Source of the DNA: a virus
Taxonomy: Duplodnaviria > Caudoviricetes
IMG/VR virus record: IMGVR_UViG_3300016263_000533
Coordinates: 1-30,648 of that record
DNA: 30,648 nt
Reading direction: 5' to 3' (one strand)
Position numbers and translations under genes: made by a program. The notes beneath the pieces are model-generated. The model saw only the letters and a list, made by a program, of their open reading frames with translations. It searched no databases and was not told the DNA's origin. Below, piece by piece: positions 23,824-30,648 of the stretch (positions are counted from its first letter, which is position 1; each line of letters opens with the position of its first letter).

Positions 23824-24519
23824 TTATGCGTTGTCACTTATTGTGCCATTCAGGGCGTGAAATTTCCATACTTGCATAGCAAGCTCGACGACGCCTTGGA
23901 TCGCCGCGTTTTCTTCCGCGGTGATAACTCCGGCCTGAACACCTTCGTGCGCAAGGTTGCCAACGTAGGACGCGCCCATAAAGAGAGCAGCAGCGGTCCT
24001 CGACTGAATCGGGTCTTCCCAGCCGGCCATGATGAGCGCAGCGGCGGCCTGGGCGGTGAGTTGCGATGCCCCGAGCGTGGGGGTTACCTCCATAACGAGG
24101 CGGGTCTGCTTGGGGATGTCTGTCTTTTCCAACTTCAGTGGTTTCCTTTGTAGGGCCAACTGTTCCCAGTCGGGTCGGTTTCGGTTCTCGAATCCCCGAA
24201 TGACGGCCTTCTCCCGCCGTATAGGCGCGGGTACGTCGATCTTGGGCTGCTGTAGAGAGATGACCACAGGTTCTGTTTGTCCTTCGCGTATGCGCTGTCT
24301 CTCACGCGGGCTTTTACCCCCAAACATCCCAAACCGATCGTTATCCGGGTCTTGAGCCATAGCCTCGGCAAGGCATTCTTCGCGTACATCGCAGCGGTTG
24401 CAGTAGGAACGAGCAACAGCAAAGTAATCGCGGCCTTGCGGCCTCTCTGGGAACCAAATGTTCGCGTCAAGGCCACGGCAAACCGCATCATGCCACCAGA
24501 ATTCACGATTTACGTCCAC
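23824..24519 (-). CDS. whiB: WhiB-family Fe-S transcription factor with long C-terminal extension
   Basis: W..DAVCRG...WFP...CNRCDVREECL...GMFGGKSPRER (four Cys plus G[IV]WGG-like turn). Start likely GTG 24519; the track's start at 24597 lies deeper in the HNH gene. Confidence 0.85.
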   Translation of the reverse strand: MDVNREFWWHDAVCRGLDANIWFPERPQGRDYFAVARSYCNRCDVREECLAEAMAQDPDNDRFGMFGGKSPRERQRIREGQTEPVVISLQQPKIDVPAPIRREKAVIRGFENRNRPDWEQLALQRKPLKLEKTDIPKQTRLVMEVTPTLGASQLTAQAAAALIMAGWEDPIQSRTAAALFMGASYVGNLAHEGVQAGVITAEENAAIQGVVELAMQVWKFHALNGTISDNA

Positions 24520-24937
24520 CGCTCGCCGCTGCACAGACTCGGCACCGGCGCGAACCGTTGCTAGGTTGAATGTAGACATTCTCAGAGGTGTATTCATGCC
24601 CTTTCGGGCAATGTGTTTTGCGAAAATTGCCGTTGTTCCGAGCGTTCTCCCTGTTGGGTAGTAGTCGAAGATGGCTCGGATTGCAGCATTTGCGGTTGTA
24701 ACAAGTGTGATCGACCGTCATGTCGTTCGGGATGTCATCATTGTGATGCAAAATCCAAGCAACACGATGAGCAAGCCTTACGCTTTTGCCGTCCCAGGTC
24801 TGACCATAACCATGCGATCCGCTTGACTGCTTCCATGGCCAACATTCGTCTTCGCCCCGAACGTCAACGCGCGTCCACCAGTCCATTGCGCGCAATTTGT
24901 CAATGTCCAAAGGGTATTTGGTTGGCGTAATGCTCAA
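24503..24937 (-). CDS. Free-standing HNH (His-Me finger) homing endonuclease
   Basis: ECWPW...GYG...AHRVAW...VDHTCYNRKCCNPSHL...N and C-terminal THCPKGHEYT..N...RRCRVC; more AT-rich than flanks. Confidence 0.9.
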   Translation of the reverse strand: MSITPTKYPLDIDKLRAMDWWTRVDVRGEDECWPWKQSSGSHGYGQTWDGKSVRLAHRVAWILHHNDDIPNDMTVDHTCYNRKCCNPSHLRLLPNRENARNNGNFRKTHCPKGHEYTSENVYIQPSNGSRRCRVCAAASGGRKS

Positions 24938-25320
24938 AACGGCTCGCTTTCTGGCCCGTCATACTGCGGTGTTTGACTTTGCGGGGCCCTTGCGCCCTTG
25001 TCGATGGTGACGGTGGCGAATCGGAGGTTGGCTGCGACGTCTTCGGCGACCAGTTCGGTCGAGTAGCCGGTGCTTCCGTCCTTCTTTTCGTACTTCCGAC
25101 GCTGGAAACGGCCGATCACGACAACTCGAGCACCTTTGGAGAGGCTCGCCGCGCAGTTTTCGGCCAGTTCACCGAAGCAGGAGACGTCCATCCAGAGCGG
25201 TTCATCGGTCTTTTTGCCGTTCGACACGCCGATAGTGAAACTACAGATGGGCAAGCTGCTGCTGGTGTAACGCAGTTCGGGCTCTTTGGCCAGGTTGCCG
25301 ATCATGGTCATGTGGTTCAT
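24934..25320 (-). CDS. ssb: Single-stranded DNA-binding protein (128 aa)
   Basis: MIGNLAKEPELRYT...LAENCAASLSKGARVVVIGR...; acidic tail ESEPF. Start moved to ATG 25320. Confidence 0.93.
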   Translation of the reverse strand: MNHMTMIGNLAKEPELRYTSSSLPICSFTIGVSNGKKTDEPLWMDVSCFGELAENCAASLSKGARVVVIGRFQRRKYEKKDGSTGYSTELVAEDVAANLRFATVTIDKGARAPQSQTPQYDGPESEPF

Positions 25321-25658
25321 TGGACTATCTCCCATACGGTGGTGGTTCTTTTGTGTGCTGTCAAGGCTTTCACCCCTGAATCGCGCAGGATTCCAAGCTC
25401 GACAAGTTCTTTGCGCCGCGACCGGCAACCCGAGGGGCTCAATTTGAGGTTGAGTTCAGCAACGAGGTCGATGAGTTCTTCGTCGGTCATTGAGTTGCGG
25501 ACACGGAACGCGGCCATGACGATCTTTTGGCCTTTGGTTAGGTCGACGGATGCCGCCGCCTGGAAACTGGTGGTTGGGTCGCCCCAGCGGGTCATCTGCT
25601 TCGGGTCCTTGTAGTAGCGGCTGCGGCCTTCTTCCCAGAGCATCATTTGGTCACTCAT
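25317..25658 (-). CDS. Winged-HTH DNA-binding protein (DPxTSxxAA family)
   Basis: RWGDPTTSFQAA...MTDEEL...SGCRSRRKELVELG...DSG...VW; start likely ATG 25658. Confidence 0.75.
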   Translation of the reverse strand: MSDQMMLWEEGRSRYYKDPKQMTRWGDPTTSFQAAASVDLTKGQKIVMAAFRVRNSMTDEELIDLVAELNLKLSPSGCRSRRKELVELGILRDSGVKALTAHKRTTTVWEIVQ

Positions 25659-25848
25659 AGCGCGTGGCCTCAACTGGGTTTGCCAAAAGATTGTGATACG
25701 TCAGTACAGCTTCAATTGAATCACGCAGGATTCTCAATTTTTCTTCGTTCCAGCGGCCGACGGTCACTCCGCCAGAGTGCATTTCGGCCAGCAGCAAAAA
25801 AGACATCGACAGGAGGTGTAGAAACATATGGCGTTCTTGGTCACTCAT
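25651..25848 (-). CDS. Hypothetical protein (65 aa)
   Basis: Fills the gap between neighbours with 8-bp overlaps. Confidence 0.6.
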   Translation of the reverse strand: MSDQERHMFLHLLSMSFLLLAEMHSGGVTVGRWNEEKLRILRDSIEAVLTYHNLLANPVEATRYE

Positions 25849-26500
25849 CGTTGTTCCCCGAGTAAATCAACAGCAGTTCGTCTTCGGTCATTGTTTCATC
25901 TCGATCAGACAGCAGTTTTTGTAGGTCAAGGGCTGCGCCATAGGCGTCGTAGAGCGCGTGGTGCGGGGCCTGCGATCTGTGTTGCCAGCCGTTGTTACCC
26001 CAGGCCACGCCACCGTGGTTGCCGTAGGCCATTGACCGGATGCAAAGCGTGCGGTAGTCGAACGGGTCTTTTTCGCCGGCGTCGCGCAGCAACTTGTCGA
26101 CAAAAGGCTTGTCGAAACTGGCGGGGCTGGCCGCGAAAACGGGCTTTGTGGTGAGGTGTGCGGTCATGCCGGCGACGAAGTCGCAGAACATCGACGCCAC
26201 TTCGCGCTCCCGGAAACGCACACCTTCGCCGCGCCACGCGGCCTTTTGCACGTCGATGGGTTGACGCAGCCACCACGACAGGGTGGATTGTGGGTCCATC
26301 ACTGTCGAGAACCAGTCGGACGCCTGAATCCATTCGCTCTGGTCGATGGTTTCGTAGAAGTAGTTCGCGTCGATGGTTGCGCATTCACCGTCAAATGTGA
26401 CGACGACGCAACCAATGCTGAAGATCACGTCTTGCGTCGGGTCGACACCGGATGTTTCGATGTCGGTGACGAAGAACGTCTGGGGACTATTGAGTGTCAT
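25841..26500 (-). CDS. DEDDh 3'-5' exonuclease (DnaQ/RNase T superfamily)
   Basis: ExoI DIETSG, ExoII SFDKPF, ExoIII HHALYDA; AGGAGG RBS. Confidence 0.88.
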   Translation of the reverse strand: MTLNSPQTFFVTDIETSGVDPTQDVIFSIGCVVVTFDGECATIDANYFYETIDQSEWIQASDWFSTVMDPQSTLSWWLRQPIDVQKAAWRGEGVRFREREVASMFCDFVAGMTAHLTTKPVFAASPASFDKPFVDKLLRDAGEKDPFDYRTLCIRSMAYGNHGGVAWGNNGWQHRSQAPHHALYDAYGAALDLQKLLSDRDETMTEDELLLIYSGNNDE

Positions 26501-26666
26501 CGGCTTGTGCCTCCTGCTTATTGTTCCACGGGGAACATTCAGCTTGAAGGCGGCCGAAGAAGGCCCAGACGTTCACTTGTTCCTCGACGGTGATCTCGAG
26601 GTCGGAACGTAGCCTGTAACGGATTTCTTCGAGCATGGTGACTCCCCTGTGCGCTTGGTAAGACAT
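26487..26666 (-). CDS. Hypothetical protein (59 aa; not in ORF track)
   Basis: MSYQAHRGVTMLEEIRYRLRSDLEITVEEQVNVWAFFGRLQAECSPWNNKQEAQADDTQ. TAATG-coupled; alternative ATG at 26636 has a GGGGAG RBS. Confidence 0.6.
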   Translation of the reverse strand: MSYQAHRGVTMLEEIRYRLRSDLEITVEEQVNVWAFFGRLQAECSPWNNKQEAQADDTQ

Positions 26667-26938
26667 TACTCGATAACACGCTTGTCGTCAAGCATTTCTT
26701 GATACTGAAGCTCGAAGATGCCGATCATGTCAGGCCGCTCGCGACGCACCCATTCGAGCGCACGCTGCCGGATGAAGTTGTTCCGTGCAGCGGATCGCCG
26801 CGACGCCTCACGACCGTTGTCCGTAGATCGATACTTCTGGCCATAGAGCCTCGAAGCTTCTTTGCATTCAGCGCAGCGGCAACCCTGGCCCGCATAGCCA
26901 TAGAGAGTCCCGTGAGAAATTGTTGGGTCTACTTGCAT
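26666..26938 (-). CDS. Zn-binding HGT..GY...CRC..C protein (90 aa), putative DNA-binding regulator
   Basis: HGTLYGYAGQGCRCAECKEA motif of actinophage type; AGGAGG RBS before ATG 26938. Confidence 0.75.
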   Translation of the reverse strand: MQVDPTISHGTLYGYAGQGCRCAECKEASRLYGQKYRSTDNGREASRRSAARNNFIRQRALEWVRRERPDMIGIFELQYQEMLDDKRVIE

Positions 26939-26943
26939 TGTGT

Positions 26944-26962
26944 CCTCCTGTACGCTACTGTA
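26944..26962 (-). promoter_or_regulatory. -10 element and RBS heading the middle operon
   Basis: TACAGT (26962-57) followed by AGGAGG (26949-44); no clear -35. Confidence 0.5.
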
Positions 26963-26996
26963 ACACACGTCGAGTAACGGCGACACCCACGCGCAC

Positions 26997-27038
26997 AGAC
27001 CCCCCGGCTCTCCGCAGGCCGGGGGGTCTTCGTTTTTC
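26997..27038 (+). terminator. Intrinsic terminator-like hairpin (U-tract on + strand; possibly bidirectional)
   Basis: Perfect 12-bp stem AGACCCCCCGGC / GCCGGGGGGTCT followed by TCGTTTTTC. Confidence 0.75.
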
Positions 27039-27049
27039 TAGTGGGATGC

Positions 27050-27079
27050 TTGACATCTTCGCGGCCTCGGGTGTATCCT
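27050..27079 (+). promoter_or_regulatory. Sigma70-type promoter facing the non-coding region
   Basis: TTGACA (27050-55), 18-nt spacer, TATCCT (27074-79); no credible + strand CDS downstream. Confidence 0.7.
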
Positions 27080-27085
27080 CCGATC

Positions 27086-27364
27086 TGTCCACCCCAGCAG
27101 CCAGCTGGGAAGGCGCGTGAAATAGGGTTCCCCAGCACCAACAGACAGTCTGGGGACCTGGCTGTTACTGAATCTGTTGCGGCACCCAACCCGGGAATGA
27201 CAGGCGAGAAATCCTGTGAGCCAAGCACAACAGAGGTGGCCCTCGAGGAGTGATCCGGGCCCTGGCGGTCAGGTAGATGTGAATCACGCTGCACGGACAA
27301 GGCTTTCTGGTAGTGACGCCGAATCTGACGGGTTGAGCCTCTAATCAACTTGGGGGGGAAGGGG
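27086..27364 (+). ncRNA. Candidate structured non-coding RNA (~270 nt) ending in a G-tract
   Basis: Downstream of a consensus promoter; at least six stems found by eye; ends GGGGGGGAAGGGG. Family not recognised. Confidence 0.5.
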
Positions 27365-27505
27365 CCCAGTCTGCCCGGGCAACAACAGTGAGGCGCGAGC
27401 CCCCAGGGCGAAGCGCAACCCAACTGAGCGACAGCGAAGGCGGGAGAAACACCAACCCGAGACAGACCGGCAACCACGGCACAGAACGAACCGCGAAAAG
27501 CGGCC

Positions 27506-27547
27506 TGTGGACAAGACCCAGAGTCATCCACAGACGGCTGTGGACAA
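27506..27547. promoter_or_regulatory. Cluster of three DnaA boxes
   Basis: TGTGGACAA (reverse complement TTGTCCACA) at 27506-14 and 27539-47, with TCATCCACA at 27524-32 in the opposite orientation; matches TT(G/A)TCCACA. Confidence 0.7.
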
Positions 27548-27569
27548 CGGTGAGAGCCGAACCACAGAC

Positions 27570-27675
27570 AACACCCCCCTCAAGGCACCCCAAACGTACG
27601 GGAATGGGTACTAGACCATACCCCACGGGGTCCCCCCACGGGGCGGGGGGGTGCGCGTGCGCGGGCGTGGGCGGG
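27570..27675. other. Putative packaging start / genome terminus region
   Basis: C- and G-tracts, CCCCACGGGG twice (27621-30, 27634-43), coinciding with a sharp oligonucleotide-usage boundary. Inference only. Confidence 0.4.
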
Positions 27676-28009
27676 CTCGGGCTCGGTCGGCGACGGGGCT
27701 CGACGCGTGCCGAGCGTGCTGCCAGATCGGCGGCGGGGGGGAAGGGTCGAGGGGCAGCGGGTCGAGCGGGTCGAGAGTCCAGGCGGCAGGGCTGCGGGTC
27801 TGGCGGGGCTCGACGTTGCCCACACCGTGAGCGCGTCGGCATACCCCCCGACCTTCGGCGGGTCGAGTGTGTCGGCGAGTGTGCTGCGGGTGCTGGTTGC
27901 CGGCGGCGGGGGGTCGAGGGGTCCGCGACGGGCGTTTATTTCGCGTCTGCCGCGTCGGGCGGGGTCCGTTCGGGTGAAGGGTGCGGGCGATCTGGTCGAG
28001 GGAATGAGA

Positions 28010-28050
28010 GAGCCCGCCGCACTCGGTGGGGGTCGAGTGGCGGCGGGCTC
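28010..28050 (-). terminator. Hairpin ending the early arm transcript
   Basis: GAGCCCGCCGC / GCGGCGGGCTC 11-bp stem, extendable with ACTCG/CGAGT, 25 nt after the 28076 stop; weak pyrimidine tail. Confidence 0.6.
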
Positions 28051-28075
28051 GGTGGGCTCGCGGTGCGGGTGCGGG

Positions 28076-28381
28076 TTACTGGGTGGCGATCACCTGCCTG
28101 CCCGCTTCGATCAGCCGCCGCAGCGCGTCGAGCGCGCCCGTGTAGAGGTCGATCTCCTCGAAGTAGTCCGCGTCACTCGCCAGCCCTTCGGGGTCGATCA
28201 CGCCGCGCGCGAGTTCGTCGAGCGCACCGAGGCAGTACCGCGCGACCTCGGCAAGCGTCTCGGCGTAGGTGGCGGCGATCTCGGCGACCGTCTCCCCTTG
28301 CGCTTCGGCGACTGCTTCGCGCACGTCCTCGGCGAGTGTGGCGAGCACTTCGGCGAGGTGCTCGACGTTGTACGCGGTCAC
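28076..28381 (-). CDS. Small acidic helical early protein (101 aa)
   Basis: GTGA-coupled to the upstream gene; 21 Asp/Glu versus 6 Arg and 0 Lys by hand count. Confidence 0.75.
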   Translation of the reverse strand: MTAYNVEHLAEVLATLAEDVREAVAEAQGETVAEIAATYAETLAEVARYCLGALDELARGVIDPEGLASDADYFEEIDLYTGALDALRRLIEAGRQVIATQ

Positions 28382-29064
28382 TTGCCTGCCCCCTTCGCGG
28401 TGCGGCGTGCCTTCGGTGCGGCGGTGACGCGGTGCGGCTCGCGTAGCAGGCTCTCGGCGAACTCGACGAGGGGCGCGAGGTCGGCGGACAGGCGGTGCGC
28501 CAGTAGTCCCGCGTCGAGTTGTCGAGCGACCGCGGCGGTGCGCTTCACTTCGACGAGATCGCCCGCGGGGGCGAGCACGCTGCGCACGTCGGCGGTCGTG
28601 AGTGCGCGCCCGTCTTCGACGATCAAAACAACGTGTTGCCGACGTTCCGCGCCCGCGTGCGCCGCCTGCGTCGAGCGACGGAGTGCGAGGTAATCGGCGG
28701 TCACTACTTCGACGGCGTGCGCGGTGAAGCCGTGGGCGGCGAGTGTCGCGGCGGTCGGCGTGTCGTCGTGAAGGTCTGTCACGATCACGTCGAAGCGCGG
28801 CGGCAGATCGGAGAGCCCGACGAGTCCGGCGAGCGCGAGCGTGTCGAGTTCGCCGAAGCGCGTCACGTCGAGCAAGTGAAGGCGCGTCTTTACTTCGGTG
28901 CTGAGTTCGTCGCCCGTCGGCAGCGCGAGCGCGGCGCGGGTGTCGATGTCGTTAGAAACGAGCGCGACGCGGTGACCCGCTTCGGCAAGCGCGAGCGCGA
29001 GCGCGCACGCGGTGACCGTCGTGCCTTGTCCTGCCTTGTGGCTTCTGAGTGTTACTGCTTTCAC
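28378..29064 (-). CDS. ParA/MinD/CpaE(Ssd)-like P-loop protein with degenerate Walker A
   Basis: SHKAGQGTTVTACALA...GHRVALV...FDVIVTD...YLALRR; strong RBS motif. Confidence 0.75.
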   Translation of the reverse strand: MKAVTLRSHKAGQGTTVTACALALALAEAGHRVALVSNDIDTRAALALPTGDELSTEVKTRLHLLDVTRFGELDTLALAGLVGLSDLPPRFDVIVTDLHDDTPTAATLAAHGFTAHAVEVVTADYLALRRSTQAAHAGAERRQHVVLIVEDGRALTTADVRSVLAPAGDLVEVKRTAAVARQLDAGLLAHRLSADLAPLVEFAESLLREPHRVTAAPKARRTAKGAGK

Positions 29065-29156
29065 GGTGTGACCCTTTCGTTAGTGGCGGGCGGTGTTGCC
29101 CGTCGTGTCAGATGATACACGCGAACACGGGCGGCGCGTGAGATCGACGGGGAACG

Positions 29157-29186
29157 AAAAGAGCCCGCGCCGAGTGCGCGGGCTCT
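29157..29186 (-). terminator. Intrinsic terminator
   Basis: AGAGCCCGCGC / GCGCGGGCTCT stem with TTTT on the minus strand, after the 29211 stop. Confidence 0.8.
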
Positions 29187-29210
29187 CTCTCGGTTGAGGG
29201 GTCGAGCGCG

Positions 29211-29705
29211 TCAGCGCGTGAACGCGTCCGCCATTGCTTCGGCGAGGGGTCCGCGCGCTTCGCCCTCGTCGTCTACCGTCTCGCCCGTGTCGGGGAAGTG
29301 GAGACGCGAGAAGGCACGCCCGTCGTGATCGACGCACGACACGAGACGCACGCGGCGGCGACTCGGGTGCGAACTCGGCGCGCCGTCGATCTCGCCCGTT
29401 GCGGGGTTGATCGGCGCAGCCCAGCCCCACGTTACGAGCGCGACCGCGTAGCACCCTTCGGGGCGTGCGTACTCGCCCGCACGGAAGTCGTCGAGGAGGT
29501 CGTACACGTCCATTGACGTGCCGACCTTCTCCGCGTGCGTGCCGGTGAGCCCGTGAAGCGACGCAGGCGAGAACGCCCACAGTTCCGCGAGACTCGCGCC
29601 CTCGTTGTTTTCCACGGCGTGCCAGCCGCGCACCGTGTCGAGGAGATCGACGCAGCCACGCACGTCTGCCGCTTCCGTTGCTTTCTTGCTCTTGCTCTTG
29701 CTCAC
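29211..29705 (-). CDS. Hypothetical early protein (164 aa; WGWAAP...PSSHPSRRRVRL)
   Basis: Start moved to GTG 29705 behind the repeated RBS motif and its own promoter; followed by a terminator. Confidence 0.75.
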   Translation of the reverse strand: MSKSKSKKATEAADVRGCVDLLDTVRGWHAVENNEGASLAELWAFSPASLHGLTGTHAEKVGTSMDVYDLLDDFRAGEYARPEGCYAVALVTWGWAAPINPATGEIDGAPSSHPSRRRVRLVSCVDHDGRAFSRLHFPDTGETVDDEGEARGPLAEAMADAFTR

Positions 29706-29944
29706 TTGTGACCCTTTCGGTAGGTGACGCGTCGCCCGTTGCGGCGCGTCGGCATTGACAATACGACACAAGCAACGCCGAGCGCAAGCACCAGCGCAAG
29801 CACCGCAGGGGTCGAGCTCGACGAGTCCCGCGGACCTTCGGCGAAGTGGCGCGCGCCCGCCTGGACGGTGGCGACCGCTTCGACGCTGCACGCTTGCGGC
29901 TCGCCGAGGAACGTGCCGCAGATGGGGCTAATTCTGTCTTCCAT
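29702..29944 (-). CDS. Hypothetical protein (80 aa, possible C-terminal TM)
   Basis: Has the repeated RBS motif and a GTGA overlap, but its 3' half overlies the next cassette's promoter. Confidence 0.45.
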   Translation of the reverse strand: MEDRISPICGTFLGEPQACSVEAVATVQAGARHFAEGPRDSSSSTPAVLALVLALGVACVVLSMPTRRNGRRVTYRKGHK

Positions 29945-30093
29945 AGGTGTGACCCTTTCTAGGTTGCGGCGGCGATCTGCCGCCGAGGGTGAAAGTACCC
30001 GCCGAGCGTGTTTCGGTGGTGGATCGTCGAAAACCGCCTGTCACGTTGCGCGGAGATCGACGAGCCGACTGCCCGACGGGTGAAGGGTGCGGG

Positions 30094-30258
30094 TTACTCG
30101 GTCCCGCGGCGGGTGATCTCGTGGCGGGGGGCGTGGCGACCGACACCGAAGGGGAAGCGGTCACACTCGACGCCGCCGCCCTCGACCGCCCACACACCGC
30201 CGCCCACCGCGTACACCACACACCCGCACCACACACACACCGACGGGGGCGGGGTCAT
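30094..30258 (-). CDS. Small Cys/His (Zn-ribbon-like) protein (54 aa)
   Basis: ATG 30258 overlaps the upstream TGA; CVWC...C...H. Confidence 0.55.
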   Translation of the reverse strand: MTPPPSVCVWCGCVVYAVGGGVWAVEGGGVECDRFPFGVGRHAPRHEITRRGTE

Positions 30259-30648
30259 ACCCGCACCGCCCGCCGCACTTCGAGCCGCTGCCACGTCTCC
30301 GGCGACCCCGCGCCACCGTGGCGGGGGAAAATAACGTCACGCACCTGCCCCGAGGGGAGACACGCACCACACGCCGCACACGCGCCCGCGACGTGACCCA
30401 CCGAGAGCGAAGCGCGCCGCCCGTCGAGCCCCGAGACGTACGACGGCCCGAAGCCGTCGCCCGCCCACACGCTGCCCGCGGGGCAGGTCAGTCGCCCGAG
30501 TTGCTCGGTGCGGAACTCCTCGACGGTCACACGCAAGGCAGCCGCCTCGGTCGAATTGGCGACCAAGTACGCGACGGGCAGACCCCACCGCGCCGCCGCC
30601 TTGCCGTGGGTGCGCACGTTCTCGGCATCGACCGACACGAACCACCGC
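30255..30648 (-). CDS. C-terminal part of a GP88-like (Cys-rich, radical-SAM-like) protein, truncated at right edge
   Basis: Frame open to the window end; CPA...GACAACGAC...VIFPRH matches my recollection of the GP88-family C-terminus. Confidence 0.55.
   Translation of the reverse strand, partial: RWFVSVDAENVRTHGKAAARWGLPVAYLVANSTEAAALRVTVEEFRTEQLGRLTCPAGSVWAGDGFGPSYVSGLDGRRASLSVGHVAGACAACGACLPSGQVRDVIFPRHGGAGSPETWQRLEVRRAVRV

Follow-up and report, generated by a model that had tools for sequence, protein, structure and literature searches.

The locus analysed here raises the question of how a tailed phage with no visible replication enzyme or initiator starts to replicate its DNA. The window, by which we mean the whole stretch of 30,648 nt, comes from an uncultured virus (Caudoviricetes) whose record is 74% complete, and the absence of replication genes therefore had to be tested in relatives. 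On its minus strand lie genes for terminase, portal and capsid, together with those for SSB, HNH, a DnaQ-fold exonuclease and a WhiB-like regulator. A preliminary description of the letters alone had proposed a ColE1-like, RNA-primed and host-dependent origin at 27050-27550. WhiB genes point to an actinobacterial host, and the virus likely infects actinobacteria; this assignment rests on the WhiB gene because a terminase search of GTDB genomes found no host genome and gave only 31-35% relatives, in Clostridia. Among cultured phages, the closest terminase match was 37% identical. The cassette and its surroundings contain the following features.

24934-25428, minus strand: SSB, neighbour of the RNA cassette (context only)
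25841-26500, minus strand: DnaQ-fold 3'-5' exonuclease (context only; many relatives are without it)
26997-27039, plus strand: terminator-like hairpin with a 13 bp stem and a T tail, upstream of the promoter
27050-27079, plus strand: sigma-70-type promoter TTGACA-18-TATCCT, from a consensus scan
27086-27352, plus strand: class A structured non-coding RNA of ~270 nt, from covariation, its 5' end inferred from the promoter
27086-27115, plus strand: 5' hairpin of the class A RNA
27130-27155, plus strand: hairpin of the class A RNA
27156-67/27263-74, plus strand: long closing helix around a multibranch domain of the class A RNA
27287-27315, plus strand: hairpin of the class A RNA
27329-36/27345-52, plus strand: terminal hairpin of the class A RNA
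27352-27364, plus strand: G7-AA-G4 tract, directly after the terminal hairpin
27393-27450, plus strand: block of GCG-N1-2-AGC ssDNA mini-hairpins, a literature-defined motif (motifs at 27393, 27408 and 27428)
27407-27415: AGCG motif GGCGAAGCG
27426-27439: AGCG motif GAGCGACAGCGAAG
27506-14, 27524-32 (one mismatch) and 27539-47: three DnaA-box-like 9-mers in alternating orientation
27586-27655, no strand assigned: conserved CCAAACGTACGGG...GGGGTCCCCCC..GGGG element, common to all three RNA classes of the terminase lineage

The promoter, the G-tract, the GGCGAAGCG and GAGCGACAGCGAAG motifs and the three DnaA boxes were thus all present in the order that had been described. The promoter was the best of two promoter-like sites in 24000-30648 (shuffle mean 0.7), and on the minus strand of this interval the scan, which covered the sigma70 consensus and no other promoter type, found none. 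Its TTGA and TA..T columns were invariant across seven aligned loci, and the distance from the -10 element to the G-tract was 278 nt in the window and 269-279 nt in 6/6 class A representatives. The hairpin at 26997-27039 probably insulates the promoter; its slot is taken by a hairpin of different sequence in L004, L019 and L020, and no hairpin was evident there in L009, L010 and L018. No intrinsic terminator was found directly after the RNA. Immediately 5' of the RNA, L005, L013, L017, L021, L023, L026 and L045 have a short plus-strand ORF (MG+K.GT.GR.VKR+DL+P...; roughly 50-60 codons), the end of which is overlapped by the RNA promoter in L005 and L013. Among four of six listed runs, all compared as contigs, one metatranscriptome had two low-depth contigs that covered 27173-27359 and ended in the G-tract; they are no evidence of expression, because they come from one unstranded study in which pieces also fell in upstream coding DNA.

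The fold of the class A RNA was derived from an alignment of nine distinct sequences, 65-99% identical, taken from the terminase relatives (45 loci) and from pattern scans. In the resulting structure of 69 pairs, 97.4% of 621 cells were paired, compared to 32-45% in slid controls. Two-sided changes were seen in 23 of the 69 pairs against 9.1 in shuffles, with 0/500 shuffles as high, and these covariation figures are optimistic since the structure came from the same alignment, which holds a small number of related sequences. G-U patterns favoured the plus strand (605/621 cells) over the minus strand (512/621). Folding energy gave no support on either strand (z +0.57; 144/200 shuffles folded as well). 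Thus, the term 'structured RNA' used in the preliminary description is upheld by covariation but not by folding energy. The called genes downstream of the RNA lie on the opposite strand and face it, and a 5' leader or attenuator was therefore rejected for the window's lineage.

Of 39 viral matches to a less strict class A pattern, only six contigs, all already known, were real; of 13 metagenome matches, eight were real and five arose by chance. Rfam had no match in the region and three chance matches elsewhere in the window; there were no matches in nine relative loci at the gathering threshold and none in five loci at E<=0.1. BLAST of the region or of the class B RNA against cultured phages (50,697 phage records) and 72,556 plasmids gave nothing above chance, and no printed description of such RNAs was found in the literature within reach, which took in few subscription papers. 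Judged by sequence comparison, the cassette is a real, uncatalogued structured RNA and the RNA family is new and uncatalogued.

The terminal hairpin and the G-tract abutting it were invariant in class A, where AATCAACTT-G7-8-AAGGG occurred in 9/9 sequences. The G7-AA-G4 tract is predicted to anchor an R-loop and to be the zone of transition from RNA to DNA. Further G6-7 runs exist in the window, including a second G7-AAGGG at 27735. The GAGCG and GAAGCG words past the tract had been taken for parts of a PriA site. As bare words they are uninformative, because the window holds 104 and 31 copies, respectively, on both strands; what is conserved is their position after the G-tract.

A 'PAS-like' pattern enrichment was set aside as circular, the pattern having been built from the same sequences, and a motif from the literature was used instead. 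The sequence GCG-N1-2-AGC forms DNA mini-hairpins that are far less stable as RNA, and these are described at G4 and ssiA-type initiation sites, both of which are primase-dependent (PMC13037366). In the 200 nt after the G-tract, the RNA-like strand carried 15 such motifs in class A (1.8 in shuffled sequence; six loci) and 20 in class C (2.3 shuffled; seven loci). In class B the hairpin block flips strand, with 27 motifs on the opposite strand (3.4 shuffled; any in 18/25 loci). A PriA site of fixed orientation is thus not supported, and the block is a candidate primosome or ssi-type signal on the displaced strand.

DnaA boxes were scored with TT[AG]TCCACA, which we took as the consensus. The only perfect copies in 30.6 kb are the two perfect boxes of the cluster, and three boxes within 45 nt occurred in 0/200 dinucleotide shuffles, so the cluster is beyond chance. 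A core role is not supported, since boxes were found in 4/6 class A loci (8 vs 0.4 shuffled), 9/27 class B loci (13 vs 3.3) and 0/8 class C loci (0 vs 0.4). The DnaA boxes are thus best described as accessory. An oriC-like, DnaA-dependent origin, for which a conserved box array and an AT-rich unwinding element would be expected, was rejected on these same counts together with the 62% GC of 27001-27500.

Of the 45 terminase loci, 21 reached the downstream landmark at 27586-27655, and 21/21 had a class A, class B or class C RNA upstream of it. Classes A and B interleaved on the terminase tree, a FastTree analysis only, of 22 rows with L020, L041 and L042 left out, and at least three changes were forced for class A. 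The sister loci L005 (class B) and L018 (class A) differed in RNA class. With three RNA classes in the same slot, the cassette is, on this comparison, exchangeable. Each class ends in a hairpin and a G-run, and visual inspection showed a 5' CC..GCTGGGAAG hairpin in members of each. The class A central domain was also found in the class C locus L038 (24 bits, rough E-value); 5' domains are swappable and the RNA structure is modular. Class B gave 48 viral matches, 39 of them distinct, with a G-run 18-27 nt past the core in 37/39 and a hairpin of free sequence directly 5' of the G-run in 28/29. RNAalifold gave no two-sided changes for class B in an alignment of 12, and its core fold is therefore putative. 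Class B is common to unrelated terminase families. In class C the G-run, again after a hairpin, is short or broken (GGGAGG, GGAAG). The complete records carry class B or C, and none was found for class A. The class C phages encode a tyrosine integrase (L059:4681-5601, L061:12030-12950), and none was present among the scanned ORFs of the class B genomes G002 and G003. The 79-kb record G001 (L007, L064-L067), with a pair of class B RNAs and terminases of two families, is probably two phages joined in assembly.

The element at 27586-27655 was seen in L005, L007, L008, L023, L026 and L033-L045. It is the most conserved DNA of the interval, base composition shifts there, and we would guess that it is a packaging site (pac/cos) or a genome end. 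A second terminase lineage has another conserved element (GGGGG..CTCGGCA..CCCC.GT) at a similar distance. The RNA of both 40-kb lineages has the terminase gene on one side and the presumed genome end on the other, with the end-like element about 190-410 nt past the G-tract.

A six-frame search for DnaB_C, Prim-Pol, PolA, HTH_36 and Toprim_2 found none of these five families in 27 RNA-bearing records, 13 of them at least 90% complete, and the control genomes matched. The earlier statement that no replication enzyme or initiator is visible was thereby borne out in relatives for these families. The class A record G024 is 62% complete, yet it covers the whole non-virion arc from tail gene to terminase. 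For annotation, 80 ORFs and 137 of 350 ORF cluster representatives were compared with PHROGs. The scanned ORFs encode RecT- or ERF-like annealing proteins, exonucleases, SSB, RusA, a MoxR/vWA pair and WhiB, and a beta-clamp-like protein was found in G001. No initiator was found among the scanned ORFs of the 40-kb phages; unannotated conserved ORFs could hide one. For a 164 aa early protein, no solved structure matched. The pair of genes for a MoxR-type AAA ATPase and a vWA-domain protein (L054:10821-13018, L057:2276-4554, G006, G015, G018) occurs in three RNA-carrying phage lineages.

A link between RNA and initiator appeared in G015 and G018, which are 15-18% fragments of larger phages (G015 also encodes a helicase of the SNF2 type). 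A class B RNA and its G-tract stand there about 200 nt 5' of a gene for a 111-123 aa protein that matches a PHROG replication initiator in its C-terminal part (E 1.4e-5), and the next gene is helicase-loader-like (E 6e-7). In the Atlas, the initiator domain lay near Phg_2220_C (0.93, a lead) and the loader near G39P_N (0.97; 10% of cluster members). Comparison with solved structures gave no match for the initiator domain. A word-based search found no longer homologues of this domain, but a profile search did, and the domain occurs alone and, in proteins of 214-413 aa, as the C-terminal part; 6/30 of the long proteins tested begin with an HTH, Phage_rep_org_N or DUF6291. An initiator's DNA-binding half and the origin normally lie at the position that the class B RNA takes, and by this layout the class B RNA in G015 and G018 therefore occupies the place of both. 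Among 43 non-redundant short-initiator loci, an upstream G-tract was found in sense in 13, in antisense in 12 and in either orientation in 21, compared to 1 downstream; 22/43 had no G-tract on either strand. The class B core stood upstream of the short initiator in 2/43 loci by motif, or in three with the variant L214. The initiator link thus concerns class B and not class A, and it is a minority pattern. Ahead of the gene for the short initiator domain in L208-L210, L219, L222, L224, L228 and L266, a conserved GGTTTCCCCCCGGACCCCCCTTCC..GGGGGTTAGACCCCCCGAACCCCCC block stands 150-330 nt 5' of the match and follows a promoter and a short non-coding region; L212, L213 and L223 have GGGGGGAACCAACGGAGGGGGG in its place. 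This block is possibly a fourth class of origin RNA.

The remainder of the window gave several further observations. The HNH endonuclease gene (24503-24937, minus strand) lies between SSB and WhiB, was missing from the terminase relatives searched and is, by that distribution, a recent mobile insertion. A 228 aa ORF (28378-29064, minus strand) has a weak CbiA/ParA match (E 1e-5), a degenerate P-loop and patchy conservation in relatives, and no ParB match was found among the window ORFs scanned. No protein records matched ORF 30255-30638, which may be a shadow frame. In the early region (27600-30648), GC jumps to about 70%, TCGA and GGGTCGA repeats are numerous and the plus strand is G-rich up to about 28060. 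The words GGGNAGGG, which we take to be KOPS-like, occur in this region and in L023. The sequence GTGACCCTTTC is repeated at 29069, 29709 and 29950 (minus strand) ahead of early genes, with the ribosome-binding site GAAAGGGTCAC, and intrinsic terminators lie at about 29154-29190 and 28015-28050. GC skew, which had been put forward as a check on the origin, showed no inflection. The fourfold-site skew of the RNA strand was positive for opposite-strand genes in 8/10 genomes, a figure confounded by codon bias and spurious ORFs.

The comparison with known systems began from ColE1, which resembles the window in its G-tract and DnaA box and whose pas has a candidate counterpart in the mini-hairpin block. 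In ColE1 the DnaA box comes before the pas, and the window order is reversed. A folded RNA with a G-tract near its 3' end is present in the window, and an element-encoded initiator is lacking from the 27 records as far as the five families go. ColE1/pMB1 is described as using a 550-nt RNA II that forms a persistent hybrid and acts with RNase H, Pol I and an antisense RNA I (PMC5043065). The window RNA is about 270 nt long, and the promoter consensus scan detected no counterpart of RNA I. Common to both are the absence of an initiator protein and a folded non-coding RNA that host RNA polymerase makes upstream of the start, as it would in the window. No ColE1-related Rfam match and, among 72,556 plasmids, no plasmid match was found at E<=1. 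Membership in the ColE1 family is therefore not supported, with neither similarity by sequence or model nor an antisense promoter in its favour. As a probable RNA-dependent origin served by the host replisome, the cassette would work like ColE1 but is not a member of that family. Marine RNA-based (MRB) Vibrio replicons are likewise ORF-free, RNA-governed and unrelated in sequence to ColE1, but they are plasmids with an antisense RNA I (PMC3035462), and the plasmid search gave no sequence match to them.

Among the systems compared, the closest known case by layout is the Ceduovirus (c2) origin. In Lactococcus phages c2, bIL67 and 923, the origin, with its non-coding transcript PE1, supports plasmid replication without phage proteins, and the three origin types are dissimilar between groups (PMC7150918). 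As with the candidate origin of the window, the lytic tailed phage c2 has its non-coding origin between early and late blocks (PMC7150918), and in both a promoter is followed after ~260 nt by a hairpin and G7. In the c2 record, -10 to G7 is 263 nt with the hairpin abutting G7, compared to 278 nt in the window, and bIL67 has split G-runs rather than G7. The window lineage likewise has, where early and late genes meet, a promoter-driven transcript region that is free of ORFs and comes in unrelated, interchangeable types. In contrast to the window, c2 has an AT-rich Firmicutes host, and a second promoter and co-directional early genes follow its origin, whereas the window genes are convergent. 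Sequence similarity to Ceduovirus was not above chance in the 50,697 phage records, and the covariance model R1 had no match in c2 or bIL67. Prophages of cluster A mycobacteriophages (Alma, RedRock, Gladiator) have a non-RepA, non-coding RNA origin beside parABS that serves the plasmid prophage and is dispensable for lytic growth (PMC7157519); it had no model match, and three aligned regions contained no G7 tract. In the available text of the two sources, the RNA-dependent origins of c2 and cluster A are functionally established and no priming mechanism is given (PMC7150918, PMC7157519). The preliminary description thus overstated the lack of precedent; RNA-dependent phage origins are already known, as in the dairy phage c2, and the novelty lies in the RNA family. 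At T4 oriF and oriG a persistent R-loop of a phage transcript primes leading-strand synthesis, but T4 differs in its own replisome, a sequence-independent AT-rich unwinding element and the lack of a conserved RNA fold (PMC3016281).

Sequence comparison established the promoter-like site, the fold, the G-tract, the downstream motifs, exchangeability and the absence of known replication genes. From these we infer transcription, an R-loop at the G-tract, priming by RNase H and Pol I, helicase loading, PriA use and recombination-dependent replication, as follows. Host RNA polymerase would fire at 27050-79, and the RNA would fold so that the terminal hairpin and the G7 tract leave a persistent R-loop. 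Trimming by RNase H, or the RNA 3' end itself, would then prime host Pol I. The displaced strand would fold into GCG-N1-2-AGC mini-hairpins that, together with DnaA boxes where present, may help to load host helicase and primase. Later recombination-dependent replication would draw on the SSB, annealing protein, exonuclease and RusA of the phage. That the cassette is an origin of some kind we regard as quite likely, and that it is an RNA-dependent origin with priming, served by the host replisome, as fairly probable. This reading draws on the stand-alone folded RNA with its invariant G-tract, the lack of recognisable replication enzymes, the class B RNA at an initiator/loader module and the c2 layout, and on this indirect evidence the original proposal of an RNA-primed, host-dependent origin is partly supported, without its ColE1 kinship. 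It is weakened by the mini-hairpin strand flip in class B, the absence of DnaA boxes and the broken G-run in class C, and the lack of a skew inflection.

The position of the cassette in both 40-kb lineages, between the terminase gene and an end-like element that is the most conserved DNA of the interval, would also suit a role in packaging or end processing, either as a motor RNA or through transcription that opens pac/cos. However, the sisters L005 and L018 show that the RNA class was swapped while the terminase barely changed, class B occurs with unrelated terminase families, and in G014, G015 and G018 no terminase was found among the genes called within 4.5 kb. Nor would packaging call for DnaA boxes or a loader gene, and we consider this role very unlikely. 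A trans-acting or regulatory small RNA, whether a protein sponge, an antisense to the convergent early transcripts or a conformational switch, would account for the elaborate modular structure with its swappable 5' domains. The G-tract would then only end transcription, right past which no intrinsic terminator was found, and replication would proceed by an unrecognised initiator or by recombination, for which the phages encode RecT- or ERF-like annealing proteins, exonuclease, SSB and RusA. This leaves unexplained the fixed-distance downstream DNA signals (mini-hairpins, DnaA boxes), the placement before initiator-domain and loader genes and the match to the c2 layout. Recombination-dependent replication would, moreover, still require a first origin, as established for T4 (PMC3016281), and a regulatory RNA thus seems unlikely.

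The cassette could also be an origin at which transcription only activates, opening the DNA for DnaA or for primase at the mini-hairpins, with an RNA that is not the primer. The DnaA-box cluster and the orientation flip in class B are in keeping with this, as are mini-hairpins of the type found at the primase-dependent G4 and ssiA sites (PMC13037366) and the c2 origin, which the available text calls 'transcription-mediated' only (PMC7150918). But activation would not need such strong selection on the fold and on a G-tract placed right against the final hairpin, and class C is without DnaA boxes; we give this version only a slim chance. For the origin with RNA priming, a broader and tentative generalisation can be drawn, which we think rather doubtful: widespread modular phage 'origin RNAs' may have taken the place of the DNA-binding half in initiators of the lambda O type. 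The RNA and its G-tract would open and prime the origin, and the helicase would be loaded by interchangeable routes: through ssDNA mini-hairpins, through DnaA boxes, or through a G39P-like loader paired with an HTH-less C-terminal domain of an initiator. The hairpin-G7 logic would be shared with lactococcal c2.

Many small actinobacterial phages are without recognisable replication genes, and a covarying origin RNA would, if true, explain their replication. The natural variants of such an RNA would give a structure-guided handle on RNA-dependent phage origins, and the three exchangeable classes with their differing loading signals form a test set for R-loop priming in Actinobacteria. For genetic work in actinobacteria, the cassettes could serve as a source of small replicons that need no protein of their own and are compatible with one another.
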